NCBI GenBank assembly: GCA_027036135.1
Contig: JALVSY010000016.1
Location: forward strand, 192,001-256,000
Length of the DNA stretch: 64,000 bases
Reading direction: 5' to 3'
Origin: Pyrodictiaceae archaeon
GTDB lineage: Archaea > Thermoproteota > Thermoprotei_A > Sulfolobales > Pyrodictiaceae
Part shown: in pieces, positions 4,801 to 27,604 of the stretch
How the letters are laid out: each line of letters opens with the position of its first letter
Numbering within the stretch: position 1 is the first letter of the stretch
The notes under the pieces: model-generated
Told to the model about the DNA's origin: nothing
The model's database searches: none
Seen by the model: only the letters and a program-made list of their open reading frames with translations
Translations under genes and position numbers: made by a program

Positions 4801-5032
4801 TAGAAAAATTGAGGGACTCGTTGAAAGTTGTAATAAGGCACGAATAGGCTGTGAGGATATAAACTATGTAGTTAGTAGCCTTAAGGAACTTTTAGAAACA
4901 AGTTTCGAACATCCCATACAAGTTATAGAGCACCTTGATAAGTGTAGAGAGATTAAAGTAGACGAAATAAATAAGGAGTATCCTAGTTGTAGAAAAATTT
5001 TATCGTTTGTTGAAAGTTTATGTACGTACTAA
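1862..5032 (+). CDS. SF2 DEAH-box helicase (DrmA/DpdJ/YprA-like)
   Basis: APTGSGKT, YPRKALATDQ, LDEAH, SSAT, HHGDL, STQTLELGIDI, QRIGRAGR. Confidence 0.9.
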   Translation: MALSRRYLFKPGPKNIAQKGVNNLQRVKTFNSDYDLVRVYKALLRHEVEQLRKKANYYLDGNTVDKIVSSVTQNVKTIVNQLLDKGLLIRIGDKYTTMHAELIRKITDLSLRPGEIQVYEWRLLEPRETPLPNFAAYRYDDTEGEIAGYLERNNVDLGVARKAARALVNGLKALGSGLSSYQYKMIRHALQHQWPITLVLSAPTGSGKTLIFTIIALAYTLAKKLTRDPRSREPYVLLVYPRKALATDQLYRLIKLLYHVNKELEKAGLGDAKIDVGILDGDSLLTATHAIEEGRKYVRGVQQIETSNGNLECVYSTEDDTVECKVNGQPLGYRLVTDLRCDMLRRPPSILITNVWMLEEHIIRSKSNARLCNTQLGIDDILFNARLLVLDEAHVYKGFQQVAIASLVHRYVVELARRIVGMRLEEFKANNKNAAELIVGSLINSGDFAIILSSATITTVDEGCLSTKNPGIKAKFEKDIENFVRYTISPGVYRLIGDRRAIVSENYDCIETNSKDTRLTIVLILAPKPGVSASTLQQEVILTTLAWSTAFKAKTRRPIKFISFFDNKDELSRVYRWITDIIIRERCEHCDHLAIPDYNSTRPQCGVKPTLQAKAAWKKYIASVIAKLNVNINSLQQVPRLHNIAVEDIINAFYNNHEFWVTFPLNENIKTAADLVRQIVNVAGEVCKGREIIGVHHGDLDTTTRQEVERKFKKGELLGLLSTQTLELGIDINDVGVVIQFKPPRKAENFVQRIGRAGRSRASFYTTLGILVLSSIDTAYLIEDHAREQLFHVRPEKPPYSNYNMVLATTLRYILYVLSKYNDETQRLLAKAMSRYNIAIDKFADIQKILTRRQSLRQALADLHDIIESQEFRDTVVDLLVTMYQDSDVTRDMVLGAYNTILADIDSILRGAEVKVEDVYQILDYLRERVIELINKCIERMKSDIAKLSKKVNKIYYVKILERGIEEQRRAINNLLDELARKIEGLVESCNKARIGCEDINYVVSSLKELLETSFEHPIQVIEHLDKCREIKVDEINKEYPSCRKILSFVESLCTY

Positions 5033-5048
5033 CTAAATCTAATTGTAG

Positions 5049-7451
5049 GTGAGTACGATGACTATGACAGCTCGAAGGGGAAGGAAAAAGAGACATCGTC
5101 GTGGCCAGCCTTTCCTCTATAGAGTATTGAGTGTCCTCGGTAGGCATTATAGTATTGCTGTAGACGGCAGTAAATACGTAGCTGGAAGCTATGGTTACAA
5201 CATTACGATAGAGCGTTATAAAAATCCATGGGATGGACCAAGAGAGGAGGCTGTGGTACTACTGCCAACATCGATAGTTGCACGGTATAGGCCGTTCAAC
5301 TTTATAGTAAGGGAAAATAACATTTATTTTGTACCGCCAAGGTTTTATCCGTGGCCTAACCGTGGGTTATACGTTCTAGGTGGAATTATCTCTAAAAGAG
5401 ATACAAAGATCGAAAACAACACTCTACGCATAAGGCCACGTATTGTTGTGGCTTATCTCAATAAACCTGTGCATTACATATTCTTCGGTACCCGATCGGA
5501 ACTCGAGGAATATGCGCATGAGATGCTTGTAAAGACTGCTTACGACTTAGAGCCCGTTAAGACCAGTATCGCGACGTTAAATAGGCTCTTCATGCTTAGA
5601 AGAATTAGAACATATAATGTAAACATTAACACAAATGATAATATCGCTATAATGTATATGCTCGTGAGTATAGATGAGGCTGGGCAAGCCAGACTCGCGG
5701 GTATTACAATGGTTAAGGTGGGCCCCTATCCGGGCTCTAGGCTTGTTGGCGTCATCGCTGATCGCCAAGCTCCCTATGCCACCTTAAGACTTGTAGCTGC
5801 AGGATTCACATTAGACGAACTTTCAAGCATGTTCCATGGGATCTTAGACCTTGATGACATACTGATAGATCTTTCGATATCCGGTCAAAATATAAACAGG
5901 TTGCGTAAGGAAGCATGGGCGTTAAGGATCTTAAAGGCGCTGAGGAATAGCAAGTATGTATTGAGGTTTAGCGATTTAAGAGACTATAAAGTTCAGATAG
6001 GCAGTAGTAGTGGCATGTACTTTAATGTTGAAGGAATTAGCATTAATGATCTGGGTGAGGCTTATGAAGTCGGTCATTTGCTGCGAGCAATAGATTTAGT
6101 AGCTACGCTTCACACTTTCACCGAGACTATTCGTGGTAGATCAAGTACCCTAGTTAAGGCACACTTATCGCCTAGCAATGGCAGTATCGCGGTAGACTAC
6201 GTAGATGGTGTAGATGCTATACTAAGATTCGCATCCTTTATGCTGACGTATCGAAGTAACTTCGTGGTACCACAGTTGGTTTATCCCCATGCATATATGG
6301 ATATAGCAATTAGTAGTAGCAAGGCACTAAGGTTCAGACTCGAGAATATTGACGAAAAAGTACTCACGGCAGTAGCGTTTACGGCTTCGGCAAAGAATCC
6401 AGAGTTTGCAGATATAATGGCTCTACGGCTAGCACTACAGAAACACTTTTACCCGCCAGGCTTGCAGGGCTCAGCTCCACTGCCTTGCATTAGTAAACGA
6501 AGCGAAGAACTACACGGATACGTAAACTTTCTAGACCTAGGCCTTCTGCTTGCACGGAAAATCCTATGTACACACACAACAAGCGTGAAAGACAAGAAGA
6601 GATTAGGCTGTAATCAGATTAATAACTATTATGCCCGCATTGAGAATATACTAAAGCTCGCAGAAGCGCTACGAAACGGTGATCTCGAGGAAATACGTAA
6701 TAGAATTAGCGAATGTCGTGCGAAAAGCTTCCTTAGATACAGCCTCGCCTGGAGCCTAGCCTATGCTATCCTTAAGGGTCTAGCCCAGGTTCAGGGTGGA
6801 GCATTACTAGATTCAGTAATACTTGCCTGCAGAAGAACAGGACAGGACTGTGACTCCGACTGTGAGGTACTTGTAGTTGAAGCTGGTGAGCAGGGCCTAG
6901 GCTTTATCGACGCTATTAAGGCAGACCCAAATCTACTCCTTAAAGCAGCCTCAGTAACGAAGAAAATCATAGACCAGTGTAACCCCGCAAACATGATGAA
7001 ACGAAAACAATCTACGATAAATACATTGGCTAAAACCCATAGTGAAGTACAAGAGCTTGATAAATGCTTCTATGAGTTCCTCGATGAGCTAAAGAGGATA
7101 AATATAAATAGACCGTCAATCGACATAGCTAGAGTCGCGTTCCACAAGTATCTAGAGCTTTGTAGTGATCCAAAGTACCAGCATCTATGCAGCCCAGCAT
7201 GCGTATGGACAGCTAGAAAAATAATATCACGTGAAAGTCAAGCCTCAGAATTCCTACGATCACTACTTCCCGAAATTTACGGTGCATATATACCAAGCTG
7301 TTGGGATGGCTGTCTGATCTGTATCCATGTCTCGCAAAGGGTGTTAGCCAGCGGGTTAACAAATCATGAGCAGATGATATATGTCTCGAAGACGCTAGCT
7401 CACATACTACTATCAGCGCTTTTAACTGGTAAGGGAGGCGGCAAGCAATGA
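5049..7451 (+). CDS. DUF1998/MZB zinc-domain protein (DrmB-like)
   Basis: C-terminal LAYAILKG...VVEAGEQGLG...C...SCWDGCLIC pattern; lies directly after the helicase. Confidence 0.65.
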   Translation: MSTMTMTARRGRKKRHRRGQPFLYRVLSVLGRHYSIAVDGSKYVAGSYGYNITIERYKNPWDGPREEAVVLLPTSIVARYRPFNFIVRENNIYFVPPRFYPWPNRGLYVLGGIISKRDTKIENNTLRIRPRIVVAYLNKPVHYIFFGTRSELEEYAHEMLVKTAYDLEPVKTSIATLNRLFMLRRIRTYNVNINTNDNIAIMYMLVSIDEAGQARLAGITMVKVGPYPGSRLVGVIADRQAPYATLRLVAAGFTLDELSSMFHGILDLDDILIDLSISGQNINRLRKEAWALRILKALRNSKYVLRFSDLRDYKVQIGSSSGMYFNVEGISINDLGEAYEVGHLLRAIDLVATLHTFTETIRGRSSTLVKAHLSPSNGSIAVDYVDGVDAILRFASFMLTYRSNFVVPQLVYPHAYMDIAISSSKALRFRLENIDEKVLTAVAFTASAKNPEFADIMALRLALQKHFYPPGLQGSAPLPCISKRSEELHGYVNFLDLGLLLARKILCTHTTSVKDKKRLGCNQINNYYARIENILKLAEALRNGDLEEIRNRISECRAKSFLRYSLAWSLAYAILKGLAQVQGGALLDSVILACRRTGQDCDSDCEVLVVEAGEQGLGFIDAIKADPNLLLKAASVTKKIIDQCNPANMMKRKQSTINTLAKTHSEVQELDKCFYEFLDELKRININRPSIDIARVAFHKYLELCSDPKYQHLCSPACVWTARKIISRESQASEFLRSLLPEIYGAYIPSCWDGCLICIHVSQRVLASGLTNHEQMIYVSKTLAHILLSALLTGKGGGKQ

Positions 7452-7915
7452 CAAACACCAGAATACAAAGGTACACCGGCAAAAACCTTTACACAAAACT
7501 CGTGAAAGAGCTGGAAAAAGCTAGAAAATTAATAATAGCAGTTACACCATTCATAGACCGAGATAGCGTAGACAAGCTAACAAAGTTGGCAGCAGGAGGA
7601 ACAAGAGTCTACATAGTGACCTTAAATGATCCCCGAAAAACAATGAAGACGCTACAGTACATAGCAGAAAAAGCGAGCGAAGTTCAAAACCTATGGTGCT
7701 ACGCTTTACGCAGCATACATGCAAAGATATACATAGTAGACCTCGAAAAAATGCTAACAGGCTCCGTAAACCTGGTAAAGACGGCTAATAAAAACATAGA
7801 GAACCTTGAGGTAATAGACGATCCCGATTATATAGCCATAGAAGCAGTAAAACTAATTTCAACAGTGCTACGAGAGGCAAAATCCTGCAAGGAAGCAGCC
7901 GCGGAGAAACAATAA
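7448..7915 (+). CDS. Phospholipase D-family nuclease (DrmC/DpdK-like)
   Basis: VTPFI, HAKIYIVD (HxKxxxxD), GSVNL, N-x-E. Confidence 0.85.
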   Translation: MTNTRIQRYTGKNLYTKLVKELEKARKLIIAVTPFIDRDSVDKLTKLAAGGTRVYIVTLNDPRKTMKTLQYIAEKASEVQNLWCYALRSIHAKIYIVDLEKMLTGSVNLVKTANKNIENLEVIDDPDYIAIEAVKLISTVLREAKSCKEAAAEKQ

Positions 7916-8149
7916 CGGTACCACAACTTTATATAGCATACCTTGAGAAAGCTAAATCTCGGCATGTACCGTTTTCCACTTGTCAGCTACCATATGTGGT
8001 GGGGAACAAGCAGGGTTAGTTTAACGATTATGAGACAATTCCATTATAACAGTGATAGCGTTGCATAGAGTTTATAAGGCTAATGTTCTACAATTACGTG
8101 TTTATGTCACCTAGTATAGCATAAAAACTATCTTTTCTACAACATATGT

Positions 8150-10532: not shown

Positions 10533-11414
10533 ATGTGGTGCGGGGGGTGGGATTTGAACCCACGCAGGCCTACGCCAGCGGGTCCTCAGCCCGCCCCCTT
10601 TGACCAGACACGTTCAACTCCCTTGGGTAGCTATGTTTCAATCCCTAATGGGTTGCAGCAGGATGAGGGCTCTGATACTGGCGGGGTTGCTGCAACTCTG
10701 CAGGGGTTCCTCGAGTGGTGCAAGAGGCATGCTAGTGATAAGACGTGTACCCAGTACGCTAGAAGGGTTGAGGAGATACTCTCTGGCAGGGCGGGGCCCG
10801 ATAAGAGCAGGTGGCACATCACTGCCTGGAAGCGTTTCAACAAGTGGCTGTGCGAGGAGAGGGGTAGGAGCGAGGCCTGCGAGGAGTATAGGCGGTGGAA
10901 GAGCAGGAGCAGTAGGCCAGACTTCTACGTGCCCAGCCTGGGAGAGGTCAAGGCGGCGCTGGTCTCCGCGGCGGAGCCTTACCGCACCGTGTACAGGGTG
11001 CTAGTGGAGAGCGGGCTAAGACTAACAGAGGCCACTAGGCTGCTCAGAGAGATAGAGGGGCTAAGACTGGTTAGGTTAGACGGGTTCGTGCGGATAGAGC
11101 TCGCCTGGGAACGGGGCACAAAGAAGGCCTTCTGGGCCTACCTGGTCGAGAAGCCGCCCAGGGTCGACGTATCAGCGGAGCAGGTCTCAAAGTACGCTGA
11201 CAGGGAAGACCTACTGCCACCAAAGTATATGAGAAAGTTCGTGGCCACCCAGCTAGCCAACCTAGGCTGCGACATGGACACAATAGACTTCATACAGGGC
11301 AGGACACCGACAAGGATACTAACAAAGCACTACGCAGACCTAACCGCGCGAGCAGACAAGTGCTACAAGCGCTACGCGGAATGGCTACGAAACAGCCTAC
11401 TAGGCTCCCTGTAG
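10533..11414 (+). CDS. SSV1-type tyrosine integrase, C-terminal fragment Int(C)
   Basis: Begins with the att translation WCGGWDLNPRRPTPAGPQPAPFD; catalytic motifs ESGLR, KYMRK, FIQGR, KHY. Confidence 0.9.
   Translation: MWCGGWDLNPRRPTPAGPQPAPFDQTRSTPLGSYVSIPNGLQQDEGSDTGGVAATLQGFLEWCKRHASDKTCTQYARRVEEILSGRAGPDKSRWHITAWKRFNKWLCEERGRSEACEEYRRWKSRSSRPDFYVPSLGEVKAALVSAAEPYRTVYRVLVESGLRLTEATRLLREIEGLRLVRLDGFVRIELAWERGTKKAFWAYLVEKPPRVDVSAEQVSKYADREDLLPPKYMRKFVATQLANLGCDMDTIDFIQGRTPTRILTKHYADLTARADKCYKRYAEWLRNSLLGSL
10534..10605 (-). repeat. att site (partial copy of tRNA-Leu(GAG) lacking its 5' end)
   Basis: Identical to 27454-27525; diverges after TGACC. Confidence 0.95.
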
Positions 11415-12319: not shown

Positions 12320-13114
12320 GTGGCTAAGCTGGCGGTACTCATTTTCATAGATGAAAGCGGCAAGCCAGGGCTAAGGGAAGAGGATCCCTTTGTTCTAGCA
12401 GCATTAATAGTACATGAAAGCGTCTTCTTCGACCTCGAGAACGAGGTTTCAGCTATTGTGCAAAGTACTCTAGGTTCTTACGGGCTACCAGGCGTAGAGC
12501 TACACGCCAAGGATTTGATCCAGGGCAAGGGCGACTTTAGAAGCGTACCTGTAACAGCGAGAGTCAATGTCTATAGATCGGTGATCGAAGCCGTCGCCAG
12601 ATACGCCGACGAAGGCTTCGTAAAGGGCATAATCATCGAGACCTATAAGGATTTCGTGACCAGACCATCAGAGGAACAAGCAAGGAAATGCATAGCTAGA
12701 GAAGCTTATCACCTCATGTTAGAGCGTGTTGCCTGGGCACTCTATGACCACCATACAGAGGGCATCGCGCTCTTAGTCATAGATGAGAGCGAGCTAGATA
12801 ATCATATAAGGGACGTGGTTGAGGAAGAAATCCTCAAAGGCAAGTATACATCTAGAGTACCCACATCAAAGAGAATATTGCTCGATCCCGTATTCGCTAG
12901 ATCGCAGCATTATCGTAGCCTACAGGTTACAGACCTCATAGCATACACTGCTCGGAGAGCCGCAACCATGAGAAGAAGAGCACCAACCAATACCGACACA
13001 TATTTCTCAATAAGAGATACCCTAGAGACTATAAAGAAGAGAATCCTGCGAAAGAGTCCCCAAGGCACACTCTATGGATACGGCTACAAGACATGGAATA
13101 TTGTGAGTTGCTAG
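12320..13114 (+). CDS. DUF3800 family protein (RNase H-like acidic motifs)
   Basis: IFIDESG, ELHAKDL, VIDE, S...LQVTDLIAY. Confidence 0.8.
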   Translation: MAKLAVLIFIDESGKPGLREEDPFVLAALIVHESVFFDLENEVSAIVQSTLGSYGLPGVELHAKDLIQGKGDFRSVPVTARVNVYRSVIEAVARYADEGFVKGIIIETYKDFVTRPSEEQARKCIAREAYHLMLERVAWALYDHHTEGIALLVIDESELDNHIRDVVEEEILKGKYTSRVPTSKRILLDPVFARSQHYRSLQVTDLIAYTARRAATMRRRAPTNTDTYFSIRDTLETIKKRILRKSPQGTLYGYGYKTWNIVSC

Positions 13115-13795: not shown

Positions 13796-14062
13796 TCACC
13801 TGTCGCCCTCTACTACTTGGTACATTTGCATTAGGAGCTCTGCTACTTTGCGCCCTTTCTCTGTGAGCCTGTATTTTGGGCTACCGTTGATAATTACTGG
13901 CTCTACGAGGCCTAGTTCTTTGAGGCGCTTCATTATACGGGACGCTGTCGACCCGCCTACTATGCCTCTTGTTTGTAGGTCGTTTGTGTTCATGGGCTCC
14001 TTGTAGAGGGCTAGGATTACGTCCTCTATCTTCTCGCGGGTGCAGAGGCGGAACAAGAGCAT
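13796..14062 (-). CDS. Winged-helix DNA-binding protein
   Basis: STASRIMKRLKELGLV...YRLTEKG. Confidence 0.8.
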   Translation of the reverse strand: MLLFRLCTREKIEDVILALYKEPMNTNDLQTRGIVGGSTASRIMKRLKELGLVEPVIINGSPKYRLTEKGRKVAELLMQMYQVVEGDR

Positions 14063-14271: not shown

Positions 14272-14724
14272 CTATTTATTAGAGCTGTACGCGTCTAGAA
14301 AAGCCTCGAGGACTCGGGCCACGAGCTCTGAGCGGTTAAGCCCATGCTTCTTCGCTATCTCGTCTATCTTTTGGATAACCTCGTCAGCCAAGTAGACCGA
14401 GATTACTCTCCTGTAGCCCCTGCGCCTAGGGCTTGTCTGGAATAAGCGACTCAAGTCCCACTCGATCTTGATATGGACTATTTTCTGCTGGGGCTGTTGC
14501 TTCTCTTGTTTCAGCGAGACCTTGCTCTTATTCATAAGCCTGAGTGCTAGTGGCGCTAGCTTTTCGCGCTTAGAGGGCTCTAGCTCTGAGATGTCGACCA
14601 CGTAGTAGTCTCCCCATTCACGGGCCTCGAGCTCTATGCCTAGCTTCCTCATACAATCGATGAAGTCCCTCTTTACTATGAGTGTCTGAGGGTCTAGTGC
14701 GTCTATCACGTATTCTTCGCACAT
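14272..14724 (-). CDS. Protein with a C-terminal ribbon-helix-helix domain
   Basis: RVISVYLADEVIQKIDEIAKKHGLNRSELV. Confidence 0.8.
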   Translation of the reverse strand: MCEEYVIDALDPQTLIVKRDFIDCMRKLGIELEAREWGDYYVVDISELEPSKREKLAPLALRLMNKSKVSLKQEKQQPQQKIVHIKIEWDLSRLFQTSPRRRGYRRVISVYLADEVIQKIDEIAKKHGLNRSELVARVLEAFLDAYSSNK

Positions 14725-14844: not shown

Positions 14845-15102
14845 GTGAGAAATGTGGAACGCCTACTCCCCGCAAAAATCCAGATCCTAGCTTTTTTGGA
14901 GAAAAATGGCCCAGCCCGCGGAACAAAAATATCAAGAGAACTAGGCATCAGCGTATCAGCAACCTATGCGGCTCTTAGAGAGCTACGTGCTGCAGGCCTA
15001 ATAAAATACGATGAAGTAACAAAGCAGTATGAGATTACCGACAAGGGCAAGGCGGAGCTTGAGAGGATTAGGCGGGAGCTTGCTGTGGGGGTGGTGGCCT
15101 AG
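14845..15102 (+). CDS. Winged-helix DNA-binding protein
   Basis: ISRELGISVSATYAALRELRAAGLI...YEITDKG. Confidence 0.85.
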   Translation: MRNVERLLPAKIQILAFLEKNGPARGTKISRELGISVSATYAALRELRAAGLIKYDEVTKQYEITDKGKAELERIRRELAVGVVA

Positions 15103-17622: not shown

Positions 17623-18468
17623 TTACTGCTCATCGTCTATGCCTAGTCTCTTCCTAAGCATCTTCACGAGTAGCTGGTCTCCCTCTTCCTCTACTAGGTC
17701 TACTATGTTTCTGAGCTTGCGCCTAGCGTAGCGGCTGTAGGCGTTCCTTATGATGCTGTAGTACTCGTACACAGGGTCTGGGAGATACACGGTGAAGTAG
17801 TCCCTGAACAGTTCTTGGCGCAGAAGCCTATCATCGTATATGCCCTCTATGTTCCTAGCAGCCATTATCACGGCTGTCTTGAGCCTCTTACCCTCATAGG
17901 TCTTTACACCGTGTTTATTCACCCTAGCTATGACCGCGTCCGCGTCCTCACGTATCCTGGGCGGCAGCTTCTTCTTACTAGGCGTTGTCATTATCAACAC
18001 GCTTACATCGGTCCTGGCCACGTCGTACCAGTCCAGTAGTGCCTCTAGGTACCGCCTCATCACTGGGTCGAACCACATATACGTGGAGCCCCAGAGCCCA
18101 GCATCGTCCCAGATGATTATCTCTGCGCCGTGCTCCATCTTCTCCAAGAGGTCGCGTGGAGAGAACACTAGCGCCATGAGGGCTCTCTGGTAGGCCTCGC
18201 CGCACTCCATGTCCTCGGCGCGCATATAGTAGGTGGCCACGGACTTTATGCTATAGGTGCTCTTCCCGCCACCCTTCTTCCCGTAGATTATTACGCCGAG
18301 GAACTCCTTGTCTACGAGGGCCTCGTGCATGAACCTGTGAAAAGCGTAGGGGGTGGCTCTGCACCCTAGCTCGTTCCTCAAGCCCCCTATCTCTTCCCAG
18401 AGGTCTGCGAGCCTCTCCTTCTGCTCCTCGCTTAGCTGGCTAAATATCTCCAGGGCTTGCATCTCCAC
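17623..18468 (-). CDS. P-loop ATPase, fusellovirus B251-like
   Basis: IYGKKGGGKSTY (Walker A), IIIWDDAGLWGSTYMW (Walker B), MTTP. Confidence 0.75.
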   Translation of the reverse strand: MEMQALEIFSQLSEEQKERLADLWEEIGGLRNELGCRATPYAFHRFMHEALVDKEFLGVIIYGKKGGGKSTYSIKSVATYYMRAEDMECGEAYQRALMALVFSPRDLLEKMEHGAEIIIWDDAGLWGSTYMWFDPVMRRYLEALLDWYDVARTDVSVLIMTTPSKKKLPPRIREDADAVIARVNKHGVKTYEGKRLKTAVIMAARNIEGIYDDRLLRQELFRDYFTVYLPDPVYEYYSIIRNAYSRYARRKLRNIVDLVEEEGDQLLVKMLRKRLGIDDEQ

Positions 18469-19622: not shown

Positions 19623-20756
19623 ATGAATAAGCGGATCCTATACACCCTGCCCCTAGTCCTAGCCCTACTAGCCCTAGCAGCCCCCCTGCTAACAGGAGTA
19701 CACATAGCAAGAGCAGACGACGAGACAACGAAGATAACGGTTCTTAACACGTATAATTTCACGGCGCTGAGTAGCTACATGTACAACGCCACAGCGGGCA
19801 AACTGGAAGCCGTGAATAGCTCCTATGTACAAGTATTGAGCGACGAGATAAAGGATCTGAGCGCGGGCGATAATATCCAGCCAGCAGTGGTGCTTGACCT
19901 CTCAGCGCCGACACAGGACCTGAACACGAATGAGTCGATAACGTATGCGTATCTCCTCAGCGGCACCTATGGAGATCTAGTGGTCGGCGTGGCCGATGTC
20001 AACACCACCGACAACAGTGTCTCGAACCTACAGCTGGTCAAGGTCTCCCCCGTGAGCGGCGACGTAGCAATAGTTAGGACTAGCAGCGATATAACAATAT
20101 ATGCGAACGGCGTCAAGCTCTCGATACCGTTAGCGAACTACACGAATCCACGCGTACTAGTCATGACACCTGATGACGCGAGCTACCTGGCTGCTAGCAC
20201 GGTGCAGGAAGTAGAGCTCCGCGCGGTCAGGAACCCGCCGACAGGCTTCGCTCTGATAAGGAGCGGCTCTGGGCCAGCAGAGTTCACCATAAGCGCTAGC
20301 GGGCCTATGAGAGTCTGGTTCGACGAGGCACACGACAGCGGAGACGCAGACCTCTTCATATTCGATAGCAGTAATCCAAGCTTCTCAAGCGCTAGCACTA
20401 GTCAGTCATGGACATGGCTATGGACTCATGCCACAGCTCACATCTACAGCGACTTCGCGCCAGAGACAAGGACAATAACAGCCCATGGCCAAGTCAAGTT
20501 CGTCGTACAGATGTTCCGCGGCAATAGTGTAAGCCAGTGGCGGGTAGCCGTACGCCTACTAAGCAGCAACAACCCGCAGCCAGAGCCCACCCAGACCCCT
20601 AGCCAGCCAAGCACAACCCCGACCACCACAACCAATCAGCAGATCAACGAGGGAGCACTAGCATCGCTAAGAAACGCGTACGAGCAGAACCCAGGCCTCT
20701 TCATCATAGCAGTCCTACTGTTCCTAGCATTCATAGTGCTCCTGCTACGCCGCTAA
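19623..20756 (+). CDS. Secreted, C-terminally membrane-anchored surface protein (PPC-like beta domain)
   Basis: Signal peptide ending ARA-DD, many N-x-S/T sequons, SGDADLFI, P/T-rich linker, TM followed by RR. Confidence 0.8.
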   Translation: MNKRILYTLPLVLALLALAAPLLTGVHIARADDETTKITVLNTYNFTALSSYMYNATAGKLEAVNSSYVQVLSDEIKDLSAGDNIQPAVVLDLSAPTQDLNTNESITYAYLLSGTYGDLVVGVADVNTTDNSVSNLQLVKVSPVSGDVAIVRTSSDITIYANGVKLSIPLANYTNPRVLVMTPDDASYLAASTVQEVELRAVRNPPTGFALIRSGSGPAEFTISASGPMRVWFDEAHDSGDADLFIFDSSNPSFSSASTSQSWTWLWTHATAHIYSDFAPETRTITAHGQVKFVVQMFRGNSVSQWRVAVRLLSSNNPQPEPTQTPSQPSTTPTTTTNQQINEGALASLRNAYEQNPGLFIIAVLLFLAFIVLLLRR

Positions 20757-20824
20757 CACTAGCATCTACAAGCAATGCCTCGCCAATGTTTTTGAAAGAA
20801 TAAATGCAGTATGGGGTGGATAAG

Positions 20825-23800
20825 ATGGCGCGGAGAAGCGGTGCAGGAATATACCTGCTGGCAGGAGTAGGCATAGCGTTCATACTGATACTAGTGCTAC
20901 TGCTGGCCAGCGTCCACGAGCTACCCTTGAGCCCAGCACACCTAAACATCCTAGGCCACGAGCTCACAGAAGAAGTGCAGTCACCACAAGTACTCTACTC
21001 AACGACTCTGAGCATGCAGCCAGGCCAAGTCTATCAAATAACATATGATAGCAACGGCATACACATAGAGCAGAGGAGCAGCCAGCTAATAGAGAGACTG
21101 AACTTGTCAAATGTAGACTTGAGCGTGAACGATGTCATATCAGCGCATCTATATGACTTATACGTTCCTCAGTGTGGGAACGGCTGTGCTCATGTAAAAT
21201 ACTACGATGTGTTTACCTCTACACCGCAGAGTGGCTGGGTGTATTTCTACGCGAAGCTGCTGAACTATTGGGAGTCATTGATAGTGCCTATGGTGTTTCC
21301 TGGTATCCGTGCACCGATGAAATATGGTGGGTTACTTAGGTTTGGTGTAAGCTACGGCAACTCTACTGTTCATAGCTGGGTCGTGAGTCCGACAAACTTG
21401 AACGGGAAGTTTGGGGACTGGCACCTCTACGCGATAAACTATAACGCTAATGGATATACAACATACGTCGATGACCTGTCTACAGCGATAGATACTGTCT
21501 CTAGGCCGAGCACGTTGGCTGCATCGGTCTACTCTGGGAACGAGAACGTCATGCTAGGGGGAGACGATGCGAGTCCCAACGGCTATGGCTGGATAGCGTT
21601 CATGGCATACAGCACGTCTTCAGCAGACATCCAGAGACATATACTACCGAGTGCAAGTAGGCTCTTCGATCCAACGTTCTACAACGGCAGCGCGTACTTC
21701 GAGCTGGTAAAGGGCACTGTCGGTATTCCTACGGGAGTCGTTAGAGTCCCAGCCTCGCAGACGTGGCTCTGGCTAGTAAAGGGGGTAACAAGCGATAACT
21801 ATCTCCACGTTAGGTATGTGCCGCCTGGCAGCATTCTACGCATAAAGTACAATGGCATGGTCTACGAGTTCCGCATCAATGGGGAGCCAAACCCAGCGGG
21901 GCTCATAGAGGACTACAAGATAGACCTAGCGGGCATCTTCGGCAGCACTGTGCTGCCGAACGCCACGGTGGAGCTGGTCTATCCGTCGCAGAAAGTGCGG
22001 TTCTACGTGCCGAGCGGCTTCCAGGTAGTCATCGAAGGGAGTGGCTGGTCTGAGACCCACGAGGTGCCACTATCAAGCAGCTACGTGGACTTCGGCTTGC
22101 CGAGCTCTGGTAGCTACACGGTCGAGGTGCTGGGCTATCGGGAACAGCCTAGGGTGCACATAGAGACTAGTGCGGATGGCAAGGTGAGGATCACGGTTAC
22201 TGATGAGGCTGGTTATGCGCTTGCTGGTGCGAAGGTCTACGTCTTCGATGGCAGCAACTTGGCGGCTACAGGGTACACCAATGACCTGGGCATCTACGAG
22301 TTCAACAAGACCTTGCTGAGCGGTGACCAGGCAAGGATAGTGGTAACGGCGCTGAAGAACGGGACATACTATCACCTAGATAAGGTAGTGAGCCTGAGCA
22401 GCAACGTGGATATCGAGCCGCAGCCAAGGCAGCCAGTACAAGAAGTCGCAAGTGCTACTGAGAATAGTCATAGCGGCACAGGGCTAGCGATAATCATAGT
22501 AGTCTTGCTGGCGGGCATAGCACTACTATTGCTGGGCAGGGGCAAGAGGAGAGCATACATCATACCGCTACTCCTACTACTGCTTTTTCCACTAGTTGCC
22601 AGCTATGCTCATGCTGAGCAGATATACTTGCAATGGCGCGATACTGGCTATGATTTGGCCCCTGGCTATAGGCATACTATCTCGCTTCACGTGAGCTACA
22701 CGAATTACCCGTTCTATCACAGCGCTGGTAAGGCGATGGTGCAGGCTGGGCCTCTGAAGATAGTCTTGGAGCCGCATAGTAACTGGTTCTGGGGCTTCAC
22801 CTATAGCTTCGACATATACATCAACGGTGAGCGAGAGTACCACGAGAGCATAGGGGCTGGGGGCACGGGTAGCAACAGCATTGACCGTGTAGTACAGGTA
22901 GAGGTAGACTGCAACGGCAACGCGCTAGTCTATTATGATGGCCAGCAAGTCGGCAGCTTCACCATCAACGGGAACACGGATATACTGAGGAACACCGAGA
23001 ACGGGGGCCGAGTAACAGTTACAGCCACGAGGCTCTACAACTGCAACAGCGACAATAGCGGCGGAAGCGACGGGGAAGCGACGCCGACCCCGCCCCCAGG
23101 CCCAAACAATCCAAGCCACTACCTAGACAGCATAAGCCATGCGCTCGGAACAGCAGCTACCGCTGGGCTACTATTTCTAGTACTAGGCGGCGTAGGACTA
23201 GCTTTACTCATAGGCTACAAGCAAGCGAAGAAGCACAAACTATTAGCTCTCCTACCACTACTGCTATTGTTTTTTCTACCTGTAGCCGCTCACGCCGAGA
23301 CTATTCACATTAAGTGGAGCGATCCCTGGCACGTACAAGAGATAAGCATTGTTAGCCACCAGCCTGGCAGCGATAACCCACATGGCAGGTACATGGCTAG
23401 ATACTACTTCTCGCCCACGAGTAGGCAGGAGATGAGGTTCAGCAACGAGGCATGGGTGCCAGCAGGCGCGTACATCATACAATTCCTTGATGAGGGGAGT
23501 TATCTTTGGTTGTTGCAGGGTAGGGCTTGGGGGCATACAAATGGTTATTGCTGGTGGATGAAGATACGTCTGAGAACAATACCGCCCAGCACGCTATCAA
23601 TAACAATAGAGAATGCTACGAGGATAGGAACAAGCAATATGTATGCAGCATTCGCGGTTCTAAGCTATTATCGTGAGCCCCAGCCGCTATCTTGCATTGG
23701 GAGCTCAGAGCTGACTGTCTTAACAAGCAACGGGGAAGCCACACTGATAAGCATGAGTAGCGGGGGCATAGATCAAGCCTCTCTCATCGTATGCGGCCCG

Positions 23801-24187
23801 CCTAGAGGGCACTTACACTTTACATATAATGTAGATGTCTGGGGCAGGCACTACAATACTTATGAGTATGAGGGAGACCTAGTACTGCCAGACGCGCCAG
23901 CACCAAGCAGCAATCCAAATGGCAGCAACAATAGCGGCGGCTCAACCACTACGACTACTCCGAGCAACAACAATAACAGCAGCAATAGTAGCTCAAACAA
24001 TAACAACAATGGCGGCTCAGGTAGTGCATCTACTCAGCCAAGCATTGATTGGAGTAGCTTCCAGGAGAAGCTGAGTAACGCGCTAGGCTCTCTGCGCGGA
24101 GCCATCGAGAGCCCTAGCCACGCTATGCTGTTCCTAGTAATCGTTCTCCTAGCAATCATAGCGATAATACTGTTGCTGAGGGGGTGA
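20825..24187 (+). CDS. Large surface protein, apparent polyprotein of three ectodomain-TM units joined by internal signal peptides
   Basis: LamG-like GDWHLYAINY; transthyretin-like VTDEAGYALAGAKV; two internal TM-basic-hydrophobic-AHA/E junctions; likely start ATG 20825 after GGGGTGG. Confidence 0.8.
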   Translation: MARRSGAGIYLLAGVGIAFILILVLLLASVHELPLSPAHLNILGHELTEEVQSPQVLYSTTLSMQPGQVYQITYDSNGIHIEQRSSQLIERLNLSNVDLSVNDVISAHLYDLYVPQCGNGCAHVKYYDVFTSTPQSGWVYFYAKLLNYWESLIVPMVFPGIRAPMKYGGLLRFGVSYGNSTVHSWVVSPTNLNGKFGDWHLYAINYNANGYTTYVDDLSTAIDTVSRPSTLAASVYSGNENVMLGGDDASPNGYGWIAFMAYSTSSADIQRHILPSASRLFDPTFYNGSAYFELVKGTVGIPTGVVRVPASQTWLWLVKGVTSDNYLHVRYVPPGSILRIKYNGMVYEFRINGEPNPAGLIEDYKIDLAGIFGSTVLPNATVELVYPSQKVRFYVPSGFQVVIEGSGWSETHEVPLSSSYVDFGLPSSGSYTVEVLGYREQPRVHIETSADGKVRITVTDEAGYALAGAKVYVFDGSNLAATGYTNDLGIYEFNKTLLSGDQARIVVTALKNGTYYHLDKVVSLSSNVDIEPQPRQPVQEVASATENSHSGTGLAIIIVVLLAGIALLLLGRGKRRAYIIPLLLLLLFPLVASYAHAEQIYLQWRDTGYDLAPGYRHTISLHVSYTNYPFYHSAGKAMVQAGPLKIVLEPHSNWFWGFTYSFDIYINGEREYHESIGAGGTGSNSIDRVVQVEVDCNGNALVYYDGQQVGSFTINGNTDILRNTENGGRVTVTATRLYNCNSDNSGGSDGEATPTPPPGPNNPSHYLDSISHALGTAATAGLLFLVLGGVGLALLIGYKQAKKHKLLALLPLLLLFFLPVAAHAETIHIKWSDPWHVQEISIVSHQPGSDNPHGRYMARYYFSPTSRQEMRFSNEAWVPAGAYIIQFLDEGSYLWLLQGRAWGHTNGYCWWMKIRLRTIPPSTLSITIENATRIGTSNMYAAFAVLSYYREPQPLSCIGSSELTVLTSNGEATLISMSSGGIDQASLIVCGPPRGHLHFTYNVDVWGRHYNTYEYEGDLVLPDAPAPSSNPNGSNNSGGSTTTTTPSNNNNSSNSSSNNNNNGGSGSASTQPSIDWSSFQEKLSNALGSLRGAIESPSHAMLFLVIVLLAIIAIILLLRG

Positions 24188-24189
24188 GC

Positions 24190-25032
24190 ATGAAGCGCCT
24201 AGCCCTTCTCCTACTACTTGTTTTTACTATATCGTTGCTACCTGTAGCGAGCGCAACCCCTACTAACACTACCAAGCAGCCTCTATCCTTCAGCGAGGAC
24301 TGGCTAAAGGGCACGGTCATAGTAGTGTACAATAATCAGTACGGCACAGGCTGGTGGATGAACCCATCATACGTGGCTACCGCCGCGCATGTGGTAGGAT
24401 GGAACCCGCGTGCAACAGTCACAATAATCCGAGGCAACGTAGAGAGTAGTGGCCATGTAGTGGCATTGGATAGGAACGGCGATGTCTGTATCATAAGAGT
24501 TGATCATCCCGAGCGCTTCGGAGACAAACATGTATTCCCATTGGCTCACTACATGCCGCCGCCCACGAGCACTATCTATGTCATCGGGTACCCAAGTGAG
24601 CTCCTACAAGTGCTAAACAATGACTTGCATGCTCTCAGCGAGCACCCCCGCGTCCTCGAGAGCCACCTGACGTGGACGGCCTCGGGCTTGATAGAGCTCG
24701 GCGGCATCACGGATGCAGGCAACTCTGGCGGCCCAGTCGTCGATAGTGCTGGGAATGTCATTGGACTGGTATCGTTCGCTCTCCGTGGCCCCGCAGGCAC
24801 ATTGTACTTCGCCACAAGTGTTAGGAACTTGAAGGAGCTGGCGCAGCAGCATGGAATCAGTTATGAGGAAGGCTCAGCGGGGATAATCGCGAGCATACAG
24901 GACAACCCAGCAGCAGTAGCAGCAGCCACAGCAGCTGGGGTAAACATTGTGATGGACTTAGCGATACTCGGGCTAGGCATAGCGATAGGCTCGGGCGCGC
25001 TAGCGGCTCATAGGCGTAGGTCTAGGCGTTAG
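24190..25032 (+). CDS. Membrane-anchored trypsin-like (S1) serine protease
   Basis: Signal peptide, TAAHVV, DVCII, GNSGGPV, C-terminal TM and basic tail. Confidence 0.9.
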   Translation: MKRLALLLLLVFTISLLPVASATPTNTTKQPLSFSEDWLKGTVIVVYNNQYGTGWWMNPSYVATAAHVVGWNPRATVTIIRGNVESSGHVVALDRNGDVCIIRVDHPERFGDKHVFPLAHYMPPPTSTIYVIGYPSELLQVLNNDLHALSEHPRVLESHLTWTASGLIELGGITDAGNSGGPVVDSAGNVIGLVSFALRGPAGTLYFATSVRNLKELAQQHGISYEEGSAGIIASIQDNPAAVAAATAAGVNIVMDLAILGLGIAIGSGALAAHRRRSRR

Positions 25033-25136
25033 CCTTTTTCCTTGAACCCCTTTTCATCAAAGCTTCATCAGTTTTATGACCCCCTTCCAAGAAGGGGTTT
25101 ATTATTTCATCGATTTCTCCATCACATGGTGATTGT

Positions 25137-25315: not shown

Positions 25316-25681
25316 GTGGCTGACCCGCTTGCACAAGCAGTGCTGTATCTGGTCTACTCTGCTATCTTCTTCATACTCGCTGCTATCGCTAGCATGCTGT
25401 GGCCCAGGAAGACCGAGAAGCGCTTGAAAGAGGTAATTGAGAGGAAGGAGAGGGAGATAGGGGAGCTCAAGAAGCGGATAGCCAGGCTAGAGGAACGGCT
25501 CGCGGAGAAGGACACCGAGTGCTACCAGAAGATGCAGAGACTATGCGGACTGGAGCGGGATGCGGCTGCTCTCCTCGATGCTTTGGAGAATGGCGAGGCA
25601 GTAGTCATGTGCAGGGATGGTAGGCCAGCGGCTGTGATAGGGGGGAAGCTTGTATGCCTGGAGAGGCCAGCCCAGAGCTAA
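25316..25681 (+). CDS. Membrane-anchored coiled-coil protein
   Basis: N-terminal TM followed by heptad repeats. Confidence 0.7.
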   Translation: MADPLAQAVLYLVYSAIFFILAAIASMLWPRKTEKRLKEVIERKEREIGELKKRIARLEERLAEKDTECYQKMQRLCGLERDAAALLDALENGEAVVMCRDGRPAAVIGGKLVCLERPAQS

Positions 25682-26841
25682 TCCAGCAGGCAAGGGAGCT
25701 CCTGCAGTGGCTCATACAGCACCATATCCAGAGCGAGCAACAATACATATGGTATATACTGTTATCCGTGCCTATCGGTATACTGTTCTTCCTAGCACTG
25801 ACGCGCAGAGAGCAGGCGGCGCATCTTAGCAGTATCTGGGATAAGCTGAGATTCTTCTTCTCGCCGTTTGCACCAGACATGTTCGTGATAGTGCTTGACA
25901 GCTATGGGTGGCATGTGGGATACGATGTAGAGGTGATTCCTGGCAAGAAGTATAACGTGATACGGTTTGCTGGGAAGGAGTATCGCATGCTTGATGATCC
26001 TAGGCGCTGGGCGGAGCCCCTCAGCCTGCTCGATATGAAGGCGCCGCCTGGGATACCGTCTCCCTTTGGGCTTGTTGCGCGCCTAGTGGTCTCGTGGATG
26101 CTGGCGCTGATATTCGCTACGTACGCGTTTAGCCAGACAGCATACATCAGCTACTTTGCCTACCACATTAACCCTACATGGATTGATGTGCTAAGTGTAG
26201 TGTGGTTCGGCGTGATGCTTGCATGGTTCATACGCAACGTGCTAGAGCTCCATAGGAGCACGGGTATGGGTATAGAGCTCTGGGTAATACCACCAACCAA
26301 TATAGTAATACCAGCCACGCCTGGCCCACAGACCATGAAAGAGTGGAAGGACTTGCTGCTCCGCAGCCTAGACTCGACAGAGGCCGAAAAATGCGAAGCC
26401 ATAGAGAAGCTAGCCAAGAAGCTAGAAGGAGTAAAGGACGAGGAAGCAGCCGCCCAGATAATCGCCATGGCACGGGATGCCATTATCTGGAGACAGCGCT
26501 ACGCCGAGCTAGAAGAACAATTAGATAAACATGTTGAGGCTGCCGAGGCTGCTGCTCTGAGGGCTGGCCAGCCTGCCCCAGTAGGCGGGCCGAGGCTGTG
26601 GAGATGGATGCCCTGGATAGTGGTAGGTGCAATACTCTTAGCGCTAGTAGCCGTGTTCATAGCGCTGCAGCCATCAGTTCACTCAGTAGCCCATAACGCG
26701 ACGACGACCACAACATATACACATGCCGTCGGCCCAGCGACCCCGCCGCCACCGCCAAGCCATGCTACTAGCACGCCTACAGCTACTCCTGCCCAGCCGC
26801 CACCGCCGCCTACGAACACCACGGTGGTGAGGCATGGCTGA
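25654..26841 (+). CDS. Multi-pass membrane protein with coiled coil and Pro/Thr-rich tail
   Basis: About four hydrophobic segments; PPPPP tracts. Confidence 0.7.
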   Translation: MPGEASPELIQQARELLQWLIQHHIQSEQQYIWYILLSVPIGILFFLALTRREQAAHLSSIWDKLRFFFSPFAPDMFVIVLDSYGWHVGYDVEVIPGKKYNVIRFAGKEYRMLDDPRRWAEPLSLLDMKAPPGIPSPFGLVARLVVSWMLALIFATYAFSQTAYISYFAYHINPTWIDVLSVVWFGVMLAWFIRNVLELHRSTGMGIELWVIPPTNIVIPATPGPQTMKEWKDLLLRSLDSTEAEKCEAIEKLAKKLEGVKDEEAAAQIIAMARDAIIWRQRYAELEEQLDKHVEAAEAAALRAGQPAPVGGPRLWRWMPWIVVGAILLALVAVFIALQPSVHSVAHNATTTTTYTHAVGPATPPPPPSHATSTPTATPAQPPPPPTNTTVVRHG

Positions 26842-27124
26842 TCTCGGGGCCTATGTGCTTGCTGGGATAGCTATTGCTACCCTGGGCTACATGTATGTGA
26901 GGATATTCGAGAGGGCTGGCCTGCTCCCAGCGCTCTTCGGCACCTCGCTAATGGTGGATCTCTTCACGTTGATGCTGATACTCCTAGGCATAGACCGTCC
27001 ATGGCTGCTGCTCTGCACTAAGCTAGGATGTGTAACAATAACCTACGCTACTGCTTTCCTCTCAGTAAAGCTGCCACTGACACTGTACACAGGCTACAAG
27101 CTAGTAACCCATGGCAGGAGATAG
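26834..27124 (+). CDS. Small membrane protein
   Basis: About three hydrophobic segments; GGTGAGG SD. Confidence 0.65.
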   Translation: MADLGAYVLAGIAIATLGYMYVRIFERAGLLPALFGTSLMVDLFTLMLILLGIDRPWLLLCTKLGCVTITYATAFLSVKLPLTLYTGYKLVTHGRR

Positions 27125-27227: not shown

Positions 27228-27525
27228 ATGCCTGAAGGGAAACCACTCGCCTATCAAGGGCGACTGCAACCCTTGTACATCTACATACGCAGCTTCAGGA
27301 AGAACGGCAAACAGTACAAGTACTTGATAGTAGAGGAGTACCAGGGCAGCGGCAGGCGCAGAGTAATCGCCAGATACAACGCCGAGGAAGCAGCCAAGCT
27401 CCTAGCATACCTAGCAAGAAACGGGATAAACAACCTAGAGGAGCTAATGAGGGTGTGGTGCGGGGGGTGGGATTTGAACCCACGCAGGCCTACGCCAGCG
27501 GGTCCTCAGCCCGCCCCCTTTGACC
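27228..27525 (+). CDS. Integrase N-terminal fragment Int(N)
   Basis: Reads in frame into the att peptide VWCGGWDLNPRRPTPAGPQPAPFD; excision would rebuild a 368-aa integrase. Confidence 0.9.
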
Positions 27526-27543
27526 TGGCTCGGGCACCCCCGC
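27456..27543 (-). tRNA. tRNA-Leu(GAG), CCA encoded; integration target
   Basis: GCGGGGGTGCCCGAGCCAGGTCAAAGGGGGCGGGCT-GAG-GACCCGC...GGTTCAAATCCCACCCCCCGCACCA. Confidence 0.97.
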
Positions 27544-27604
27544 ACCCGTGCCCATGTATTGTCTTTAGACTAGGATAGGGGAGGAGTTTTTGTAGCTTAA
27601 GGTG

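Follow-up and report, generated by a model that had tools for sequence, protein, structure and literature searches.

Can a single gene of an archaeal virus give rise to several membrane-anchored surface proteins? The question is raised by an open reading frame (ORF) at positions 20825-24187 of a stretch of 64,000 nucleotides (nt) from a Pyrodictiaceae archaeon (contig JALVSY010000016.1 of assembly GCA_027036135.1, positions 192,001 to 256,000), hereafter called the window. The ORF lies in a 16.9-kb probable provirus that resides in tRNA-Leu, carries an integrase of the Sulfolobus spindle-shaped virus (SSV) type and is related to Aeropyrum globular virus 1 (AGV1). Judged by its homologues, the ORF arose when three once separate genes of a virus envelope or surface module, termed u1, u2 and u3, were fused in frame, and the fused product is probably cleaved by the host signal peptidase I into three proteins. 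We infer the topology, the enzyme, an equal stoichiometry and the incorporation of the products into virions. A first-pass annotation of this DNA had proposed three anchored proteins from the one gene; the anatomy, the origin of the cassettes and the sizes of 597, 227 and 296 amino acids (aa), which follow from the coordinates, support this in part, while the cleavage itself is predicted.

Residues are numbered in the 1127-aa frame from ATG 20804, in which M8 corresponds to ATG 20825. The ORF listing of the window gives a single open frame at 20804..24187 (+) with 1127 uninterrupted codons. On sequence comparison ATG 20825 (MARRSG...) is the likelier start, since homologues start with M[AGKV]RR.. 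at the corresponding position and the protein is 1120 aa long in the database. A hydropathy scan revealed six hydrophobic segments (residues 13-42, 555-580, 583-603, 780-805, 811-831 and 1103-1127). Both junctions between the units consist of a transmembrane (TM) anchor, a basic loop of 5-7 residues, a hydrophobic stretch of 19-21 residues and AHA↓E, where the arrow marks the predicted cut. At junction 1, an uncharged TM segment (554-578) ending in GLAIIIVVLLAGIALLLLG is followed by RGKRR, AYIIPLLLLLLFPLVASYAHA and E605 (nt 22616), and at junction 2 an uncharged TM segment (776-805) ending in LLFLVLGGVGLALLIGY is followed by KQAKKHK, LLALLPLLLLFFLPVAAHA and E832 (nt 23297). The junctions and their glutamate codons thus lie exactly where the first-pass annotation had put them, and the motif E-x-I-x-[LI]-x-W-x-D that it had described is present at both predicted new N-termini. 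It had also stated that no Met precedes the internal signals. Indeed, neither ATG nor GTG occurs between either anchor and its AHA in the window sequence, and the only start-like codons near the junctions are TTG Leu codons at aa 568 and 576 (inside the first TM anchor) and at aa 822 (inside the second hydrophobic stretch). The distribution of charges matches the positive-inside rule, with RR near the N-terminus, four basic residues in each loop and R in the C-terminal tail.

Each unit would be a type I membrane protein with an export signal, a beta-rich ectodomain, a low-complexity linker, a TM anchor and a basic tail. In the u1 family, a long hydrophobic N-terminus is followed by a conserved P-x-x-PLPTG...LTEE (window 20825-20960; homologue alignment). 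This N-terminus has no clear A-x-A site and is therefore probably a signal anchor. The upstream single-unit gene (uA) has the same plan, as had been claimed: signal, ectodomain, linker rich in S, T and P, TM segment and RR were all seen, and uA homologues with 39-63% identity occupy the same position in the relatives G004, G190 and G253.

The sequence of junctions 1 and 2 was base-for-base identical in contigs of four public runs from three studies, two of which runs may be the source of the window assembly. No substitutions, indels or joints were observed. The contigs of run X3 over window 20700-25100 were short, with adapter-like ends and a word depth of ~1000-2000 vs 9-118 in runs X1, X2 and X4.

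The origin of the three units is apparent from their homologues. The whole ORF was compared with 1.84 billion representative proteins, which gave 122 homologues at E<=1e-3. Most matches to the units cover one unit only: these proteins start with a Met and a hydrophobic signal and carry a TM segment near the C-terminus. They comprise u1 proteins of ~540-600 aa (query 8-582), u2 proteins of ~215-255 aa (query ~584-814) and u3 proteins of 258-324 aa (query 813-1127). Nearly all of them show both the N-terminal hydrophobic segment and the C-terminal TM segment followed by basic residues. In alignment A1, the internal stretch RRAYIIPLLLLLLFPLVASYAHA of the window falls in the columns that hold, in 21 stand-alone u2 proteins, a signal peptide starting with Met, and the conserved mature u2 start ..PL.WRDTGYDLAPGYR.. 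begins at the same column in the window and in the stand-alone proteins. Stand-alone u3 proteins have a Met and a signal ending in AHA, ASA or similar, followed by [IV]H[IV]KW.DPWHV. Several stand-alone u2 proteins end in ...SQAKKRKLLAR, ...SQARRHKLV or ...KQARKRKWL. Since this tail motif is also that of the second loop in the window (YKQAKKHKLL...), junction 2 looks like a lost stop codon after which the frame runs into the signal of the next gene. Whether homologues occur as separate genes or with shuffled units had been put forward as a check, and the outcome was positive. As the homologues are mostly separate genes with their own Met and signal, and the units are reordered and fused in relatives, the internal hydrophobic stretches are, by homology, retained N-terminal signal peptides. 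Other matches are large proteins that share only a ~90-residue region of u1 (residues 287-375), among them ORF1767 of Hyperthermophilic archaeal virus 2 (HAV2) and many database proteins such as P0018 (2057 aa) and P0022 (1796 aa). This segment appears to be a widely mobile domain among surface proteins of hyperthermophile viruses.

The units u2 and u3 share a short motif, [IV]-x-[LIV]-x-W-[RKS]-D, at their predicted mature N-termini (window 22616-22645 and 23297-23326). Homology between the two units was considered and is not claimed: their profiles align only over the signal c-region and ~10 mature residues (~19 columns, probability 37.5%), which is insufficient. The motif could reflect remote homology, a docking strand or a constraint beside the cleavage site.

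Fusion of such units has occurred repeatedly among related loci. The module was found in 5 of 61 relatives searched with the full ORF and, within the class, in 13 of 351 genomes searched with the u2 profile, and these genome searches plus loci from a search with the neighboring protease gave 16 informative loci. A pattern search of viral contigs with the u2 alignment yielded three pattern matches, none of which was confirmed. All units are separate genes at 10 of the 16 loci (G190, G253, G141, G035, G215, G122, G168, L034, L037 and L038), the order in G190 being uA, u2, u1, protease and the gene for a protein with four TM segments (4-TM protein). The other six carry in-frame fusions, written here with a tilde, which differ in composition: u1~u2~u3 with a separate protease gene in the window; u1~u2~protease in one 1087-aa ORF in G004, from the same genus, with u3 encoded next by a gene of its own that has a Met and a signal; u2~Y~protease in G246; protease~u2 with extra TM segments in G019; u2~X in G039; and u2'~u1 in G180. 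Further combinations are present in database proteins, namely u1~u2 (P0003), X~u2 (P0113), u2~short unit (P0091), Z~protease (P0127), u2'~u1 (P0019 and P0028) and u1~u2~protease (P0126, NCBI name Pyrofollis japonicus).

The module always includes the protease, which in G004, G246, G019 and P0127 is fused in through the same junction of TM segment, loop, signal and A-x-A (L023 7641-10904; L027 3902-6010; L029 7549-9324). The loop and signal that follow u2 (KQAKK[HR]KLL..PLL..F..) are alike in the window (23219-23296) and in L023 (G004 junction 2), although the mature domains differ, u3 vs protease. This likeness despite different downstream domains, together with the KQAKK-type tails of stand-alone u2 proteins, suggests that units have been exchanged at or near the boundary between signal and mature protein; the segment is of low complexity.

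The fusions in the relatives, too, mostly keep a predicted signal peptidase site at the junction. We counted only signal-type junctions, i.e., those into units with a cleavable-type signal, and counted the shared u1~u2 junction once. The two junctions read AHA↓E and AHA↓E in the window, AHA↓E and AYA↓E in G004, and VHA↓E and AHA↓S in G246, while single junctions read VHA↓D in P0003, AHA↓D in G019, AGA↓E in P0113, ARA↓D in P0091 and AHA↓Q in P0127. [AV]-x-A thus stands before a polar residue at nine of ten independent events, each time with a Pro or Gly 4-9 residues upstream of the site, whereas the tenth, in G039, is less clear (possibly AAA↓T). In the u1~u2 junction common to the window, G004 and P0003, whose proteins are ~50% identical, the h-regions have almost fully diverged and the sites are AHA↓E, AHA↓E and VHA↓D. 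That AHA or VHA was kept in three lineages while the h-regions diverged argues for selection on the site and not on mere hydrophobicity.

The two internal stretches of the window also have the character of Sec-type class 1 signals. RGKRR and KQAKKHK stand directly upstream as n-regions, the distance from loop to site is 21 and 19 residues with a Pro at -9 and -6, respectively, small residues occupy -3 and -1 in A-H-A↓E at both junctions, and both stretches are homologous to the N-terminal signals of the stand-alone u2 and u3 proteins described above. The adjoining stop-transfer anchors, with uncharged stretches of 25-30 residues, are longer than the signals. As a control, ORFs of >=100 aa in the host genome were scanned for hairpins composed of a TM segment, a basic loop of <=12 residues and a hydrophobic stretch. 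Among 44 internal hairpins, four had a second stretch of 14-30 residues ending in small-x-small before D or E; two of these four are the junctions of the window, which are also the only two of the 44 ending in A-x-A↓[DE]. The corresponding numbers for the other 42 hairpins are therefore 2/42 under the lax small-x-small rule and 0/42 for AxA↓[DE]. The host encodes three matches above the cut-off to archaeal signal peptidase I (TIGR02228). In a crude scan of host N-termini, signal-like sequences also ended in xHA before a polar residue; since such ends occur in the host's own predicted secreted proteins, the motif is not specific to the element.

From this anatomy a path of maturation can be proposed. 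The fusions would have deleted stop and start codons and kept the signal peptides of the downstream genes, and each resulting junction would comprise a stop-transfer TM segment running from N-out to C-in, a short basic cytoplasmic loop, a signal-type stretch running from in to out, and A-H-A↓E. The N-terminal anchor of u1 would direct the nascent chain to the Sec translocon for co-translational insertion, and the u1 ectodomain would be exported until transfer is halted by the TM segment 555-578. RGKRR would be retained in the cytoplasm according to the positive-inside rule, residues 584-604 would reinsert, and A-H-A would be presented to signal peptidase I at the outer face of the membrane. 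The same sequence of events would follow at residues 780-831. Cuts after A604 and A831 would yield three membrane-anchored proteins made at equal rates, namely a u1 product of ~597 aa (from M8) with an N-terminal signal anchor and a C-terminal helical hairpin, a u2 product of 227 aa with a C-terminal hairpin, and a u3 product of 296 aa with a single C-terminal anchor.

The main rival accepts the same fusion of three cassettes and leaves it uncleaved, so that the junctions would be permanent helical hairpins in one 1120-aa protein with three ectodomains outside. We consider this rather unlikely, and several observations speak for it. The fusions directed into u1 (G180, P0019 and P0028) have no A-x-A site; fusion is therefore tolerated without cleavage in this family, and the hairpin alone preserves the correct topology. 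G019 in addition carries extra C-terminal TM segments without sites. Other points also weigh against cleavage by signal peptidase and a place in the virion. Several junction sequences share ancestry, the u1~u2 junction being common to three lineages only, and part of the A-x-A retention could be inheritance and not selection. The site calls themselves derive from the -3/-1 rule, alignment and crude scans of our own. A virion location of u1-u3 is suggested indirectly, by the module shared with AGV1 and by the structural match of u1 to a protein of an uncultured archaeal virus, and uA shows no detectable homology to the AGV1 major virion protein (hhalign probability 1.6%). The label glycoprotein was dropped, as N-glycosylation sequons were not enriched over shuffled sequences in any ectodomain (u1 6 vs 4.2, u2 0 vs 2.2 and u3 6 vs 4.6). 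Cleavage by signal peptidase I is nevertheless favored over permanent hairpins. The second stretches are signal-like and not anchor-like: loop and site are 18-24 residues apart, the h-core is short, and a P or G breaks the helix. Their homologues are N-terminal signals, which have no upstream segment to anchor; the A-x-A site recurs before a polar residue in nine of ten events and is kept while h-regions diverge; and such endings are rare in the other hairpins of the host.

Three further explanations were weighed. It is improbable that the element itself, through its membrane-anchored trypsin-like protease (24184-25032), makes the cuts at or near the junctions in place of the host signal peptidase. 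The constancy of this protease in the module, a catalytic triad (H69, D100, S181) that is intact and invariant in seven sequences, its presence inside a fused ORF in four relatives (G004, G246, G019 and P0127) and a catalytic domain predicted on the same outer side as the sites would all fit such a role. However, A-x-A ends of the same kind also close the N-terminal signals of stand-alone units, including that of the protease itself (VASA↓T), and occur on host proteins, and the protease is kept at the 10 of 16 loci where all units are separate; its conserved role therefore cannot be junction cleavage. Its substrate could be the S-layer, virion proteins or host receptors. Even less probable is internal translation initiation that would produce the units separately. 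TTG codons at aa 568 and 576 do lie upstream of junction 1, and initiation at the latter (nt 22529) would put M-LGRGKRR in front of signal 1 and yield a normal-looking signal peptide; however, no ATG, GTG or usable TTG precedes signal 2, as the TTG at aa 822 lies inside the h-region, and no stop is present at the end of u1 or u2, so ribosomes translating u1 would read through in any case. We attach the least weight of all to an artefact of assembly or sequencing that hides stops and starts, or to an accidental fusion in a dead provirus, although the window comes from a metagenome-derived assembly and most relatives have separate genes. Contigs from the four runs agree across both junctions (with the reservation about two of them given above), no stop interrupts the 1127 codons of the frame, three lineages at ~50% identity have the u1~u2 fusion in common, and the provirus retains intact att sites together with the two halves of the integrase, the ATPase and the complete module. 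Signal-peptidase cleavage of the three-cassette fusion thus remains the best explanation.

Structure prediction unit by unit, which the first-pass annotation had named as a check, was run for u1 and u2 with AlphaFold2 and gave beta folds for both. The u2 model, with a predicted local distance difference test score (pLDDT) of 87, is one beta-sandwich, and Foldseek related it to galectin/ConA-like sandwiches (E 3e-5, TM-score only 0.34-0.42), which indicates the general fold class only. The u1 model (pLDDT 81) consists of several beta domains in a row. In the viral library it matched best a 586-aa protein from an uncultured archaeal virus (E 3.6e-39, TM-score 0.70), while its matches in PDB were lectin, LNS, glucanase and sialidase-lectin jelly rolls (E ~1e-5, whole-model TM-score 0.14-0.37), again indicating the general fold class only. 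A CarboxypepD_reg-like domain in u1 matched Pfam PF13620 at 6.5e-5, below the cut-off, and Pfam scans gave no LamG match in the u1 of the window; its relative P0126 carries a precomputed PF13385 (Laminin_G_3). For u3, neither a Pfam or PHROG family nor a usable ESM Atlas match was found. These features would suit adhesins or receptor-binding surface proteins.

The coordinates of the fused ORF and of the surrounding provirus, whose ends are marked by two identical 72-nt copies in direct orientation (attL and attR), are compiled in Table 1. The protease matches Trypsin_2 (Pfam PF13365, 5e-17; 63.4 bits vs a cut-off of 27.6). Downstream of it follow a protein with a TM segment and a coiled coil and then the 4-TM protein. 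A 96-aa protein with two to three hydrophobic segments (26834-27124) lies at the right end of the provirus and gave no family in the Pfam and PHROG scans. As the capsid proteins of spindle-shaped viruses are small hydrophobic proteins, it is a candidate structural protein; a VP1/VP3-type or other capsid protein was not recognized in Pfam/PHROG scans of the window proteins. The provirus further encodes a DUF3800 protein (PF12686, 1e-12; 12320-13114), adjoined by winged helix-turn-helix and ribbon-helix-helix regulators (13796-14062, 14272-14724 and 14845-15102). To the left of the provirus, the guanine-plus-cytosine (GC) content dips to 0.40-0.43 at window 2001-8000 vs ~0.52 elsewhere. This region holds two large ORFs (1862-5032, 1056 aa, and 5049-7451, 800 aa) and may be another acquired island.

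Table 1. Positions in the window of the predicted parts of the fused ORF and of other features of the provirus.
Feature	Position	Strand	Remarks
attL	10534..10605		72-nt exact copy of the 3' part of tRNA-Leu
Split SSV-type integrase, C-terminal part	10533..11414	+	Pfam PF16795 4.4e-39; phrog_5127 1.3e-68
DnaA-like AAA ATPase (fusellovirus B251-like)	17623..18468	-	phrog_5484 3.4e-35; tblastn to SSV1-7 and Aeropyrum pernix spindle-shaped virus 1 (APSV1)
uA, upstream single-unit gene	19623..20756	+	377 aa; signal peptide, ectodomain, S/T/P-rich linker, TM, RR
Fused ORF u1~u2~u3	20825..24187, stop included	+	1120 aa from ATG 20825; 1127 aa from ATG 20804
u1 N-terminus	20825..20929	+	MARRSG plus hydrophobic stretch of ~25-30 residues (aa 13-42)
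u1 ectodomain (predicted)	20930..22465	+	aa 43-554; all-beta, multi-domain; LamG/ConA-like jelly roll plus CarboxypepD_reg-like Ig domain
u1 stop-transfer TM anchor (predicted)	22466..22537	+	aa 555-578
Basic loop RGKRR, cytoplasmic (predicted)	22538..22552	+	aa 579-583; doubles as n-region of internal signal 1
Internal signal peptide 1 (predicted), AYIIPLLLLLLFPLVASYAHA	22553..22615	+	aa 584-604; predicted signal peptidase I cut between nt 22615/22616
u2 ectodomain plus linker (predicted)	22616..23140	+	aa 605-779; single beta-sandwich, then G/S/P-rich linker
u2 stop-transfer TM anchor (predicted)	23141..23218	+	aa 780-805
Basic loop KQAKKHK, cytoplasmic (predicted)	23219..23239	+	aa 806-812; motif of the C-terminal tail of stand-alone u2 proteins
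Internal signal peptide 2 (predicted), LLALLPLLLLFFLPVAAHA	23240..23296	+	aa 813-831; predicted cut between nt 23296/23297
u3 ectodomain plus N/S/T-rich linker (predicted)	23297..24109	+	aa 832-1102
u3 C-terminal TM anchor plus RG tail (predicted)	24110..24184	+	aa 1103-1127
Trypsin-like serine protease, secreted, TM-anchored (predicted)	24184..25032	+	signal peptide plus C-terminal anchor; GTG start overlaps stop of fused ORF
4-TM membrane protein d395	25654..26841	+	conserved module member; homologue in Sulfolobus super-elliptical virus
Split integrase, N-terminal part	27228..27578	+	runs into att/tRNA; shares WCGGWDLNPRRPTPAGPQPAPFD segment with ORF 10533
attR	27454..27525		inside tRNA-Leu(GAG) 27456-27543 (-)

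The isolated virus AGV1 (NC_036595) resembles the element in that it has a temperate circular genome, an SSV-type integrase with att in a tRNA gene, an AAA ATPase and a block of genes for proteins with a signal and a TM segment. Its gp03 is a u2 homologue (hidden Markov model (HMM) match at 1.3e-12) and its gp04 a homologue of the protease (34% identity, E 4e-21). In contrast to the window, all units are separate genes in AGV1, and no u1 or u3 homologue was found there with the HMMs built here. According to the AGV1 preprint, the virus forms spherical virions of 60 nm, has an 18.2-kb circular genome that encodes an SSV-type integrase with the tRNA inside, and contains a single major virion protein of 28.5 kDa whose N-terminus by Edman degradation is an internal sequence of ORF1_309 (bioRxiv 10.1101/2021.04.21.440749). 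As translated here, ORF1_309 starts with a signal-like sequence and has a TM segment near its C-terminus, and it belongs to the same gene block as the u2 homologue and the protease. Since the Edman N-terminus lies inside the ORF, the major virion protein is N-terminally processed, and a protein of the same gene block is therefore a processed virion component in this cultured relative. The preprint text itself makes no mention of signal peptides or polyproteins ('signal' occurs 0 times; bioRxiv 10.1101/2021.04.21.440749).

Other archaeal viruses share less with the element. The fuselloviruses and other spindle-shaped or related crenarchaeal viruses (SSV1-7, APSV1 and Sulfolobus super-elliptical virus) have in common with it an SSV-type integrase whose gene is interrupted when the virus inserts into a tRNA gene, as well as the DnaA-like ATPase, for which SSV1-7 and APSV1 gave the nearest viral matches; however, the similarity of 27-33% covers the ATPase only. 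Sulfolobus super-elliptical virus additionally has homologues of the protease and of the 4-TM protein. We know of no fused surface polyprotein in the genomes of SSV1-7, APSV1 or Sulfolobus super-elliptical virus. HAV2 ORF1767 (NC_014321; L001 9759-15062) shares the ~90-residue segment with u1 (aa 287-375) at 40% identity (E 1e-8) and is a giant surface-type ORF with C-terminal TM segments. Yet it has no internal junctions of TM segment, loop and signal, and the rest of the genome, with a primase-polymerase and a Cdc48-type ATPase, is unrelated.

Polyproteins with internal signals are textbook knowledge for enveloped RNA viruses of animals and plants, and flavivirus prM-E-NS1 and alphavirus E3-E2-6K-E1 are envelope polyproteins processed by signal peptidase. 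Such polyproteins use Sec61 and signal peptidase, whose closest prokaryotic relatives are archaeal, the machinery of the eukaryotic endoplasmic reticulum (ER) being descended from archaeal Sec/Sec11. The bunyavirus Gn-Gc precursor is described as a further eukaryotic case (PMC7926653, PMC4974537). Like the fused ORF, the eukaryotic polyproteins contain several ectodomains, each with a stop-transfer TM segment, a short loop and an internal signal with a -3/-1 site, and the upstream product retains a C-terminal two-helix hairpin after the cut. They belong, however, to RNA viruses and to the ER membrane, whereas the present case concerns a presumed temperate double-stranded DNA virus of archaea, the archaeal cytoplasmic membrane and a cleavage that is predicted, and they have no sequence or fold relation to u1-u3. 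In addition, the fused state is optional and evolutionarily labile here, given the 10 of 16 related loci with separate genes. In bacteria, FbcH of Bradyrhizobium japonicum, a cytochrome b/c1 precursor, is cut at an internal signal by signal peptidase, so that one prokaryotic gene gives two membrane proteins. FbcH differs in that it serves a cellular respiratory complex of a bacterium with two products and not a viral surface module. Full-text searches of the literature on archaeal viruses or archaea combined with internal signal peptides, polyproteins and signal peptidase yielded eukaryotic viruses and no archaeal case, in keeping with the remark in the first-pass annotation that this strategy was not known from archaeal viruses.

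We incline, with some reserve, to the view that this is the first structural polyprotein of a prokaryotic virus matured by the host signal peptidase at internal signals. In AGV1-like temperate viruses of hyperthermophilic Thermoprotei, interchangeable cassettes of signal, ectodomain and anchor would have been joined, separated and rearranged many times at the signal-peptide boundary, in some cases with the virus's own exported protease inside, and a strategy of the eukaryotic type would have arisen independently on archaeal Sec/Sec11. The strategy itself is already classical in flavi-, alpha- and bunyaviruses and would be the first of its kind for a prokaryotic virus; the added novelty lies in the coexistence of fused and unfused states among close relatives and in a protease of the module that can sit in the polyprotein. 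Should the junctions stay uncut, the locus would still represent a tidy, topology-preserving gene fusion of moderate interest. If cleavage does take place, the mechanism needs no ER, and the loss of stop and start codons between tandem genes for type I membrane proteins suffices for it to arise. The family offers natural controls, as the same units exist fused, separate and reordered, and the question is directly testable by proteomics. For annotation, long 'LamG-like' ORFs in these elements would have to be read as several proteins, and the fused ORF would open a first way into the functions of the proviruses related to AGV1, a group with hardly any annotation.

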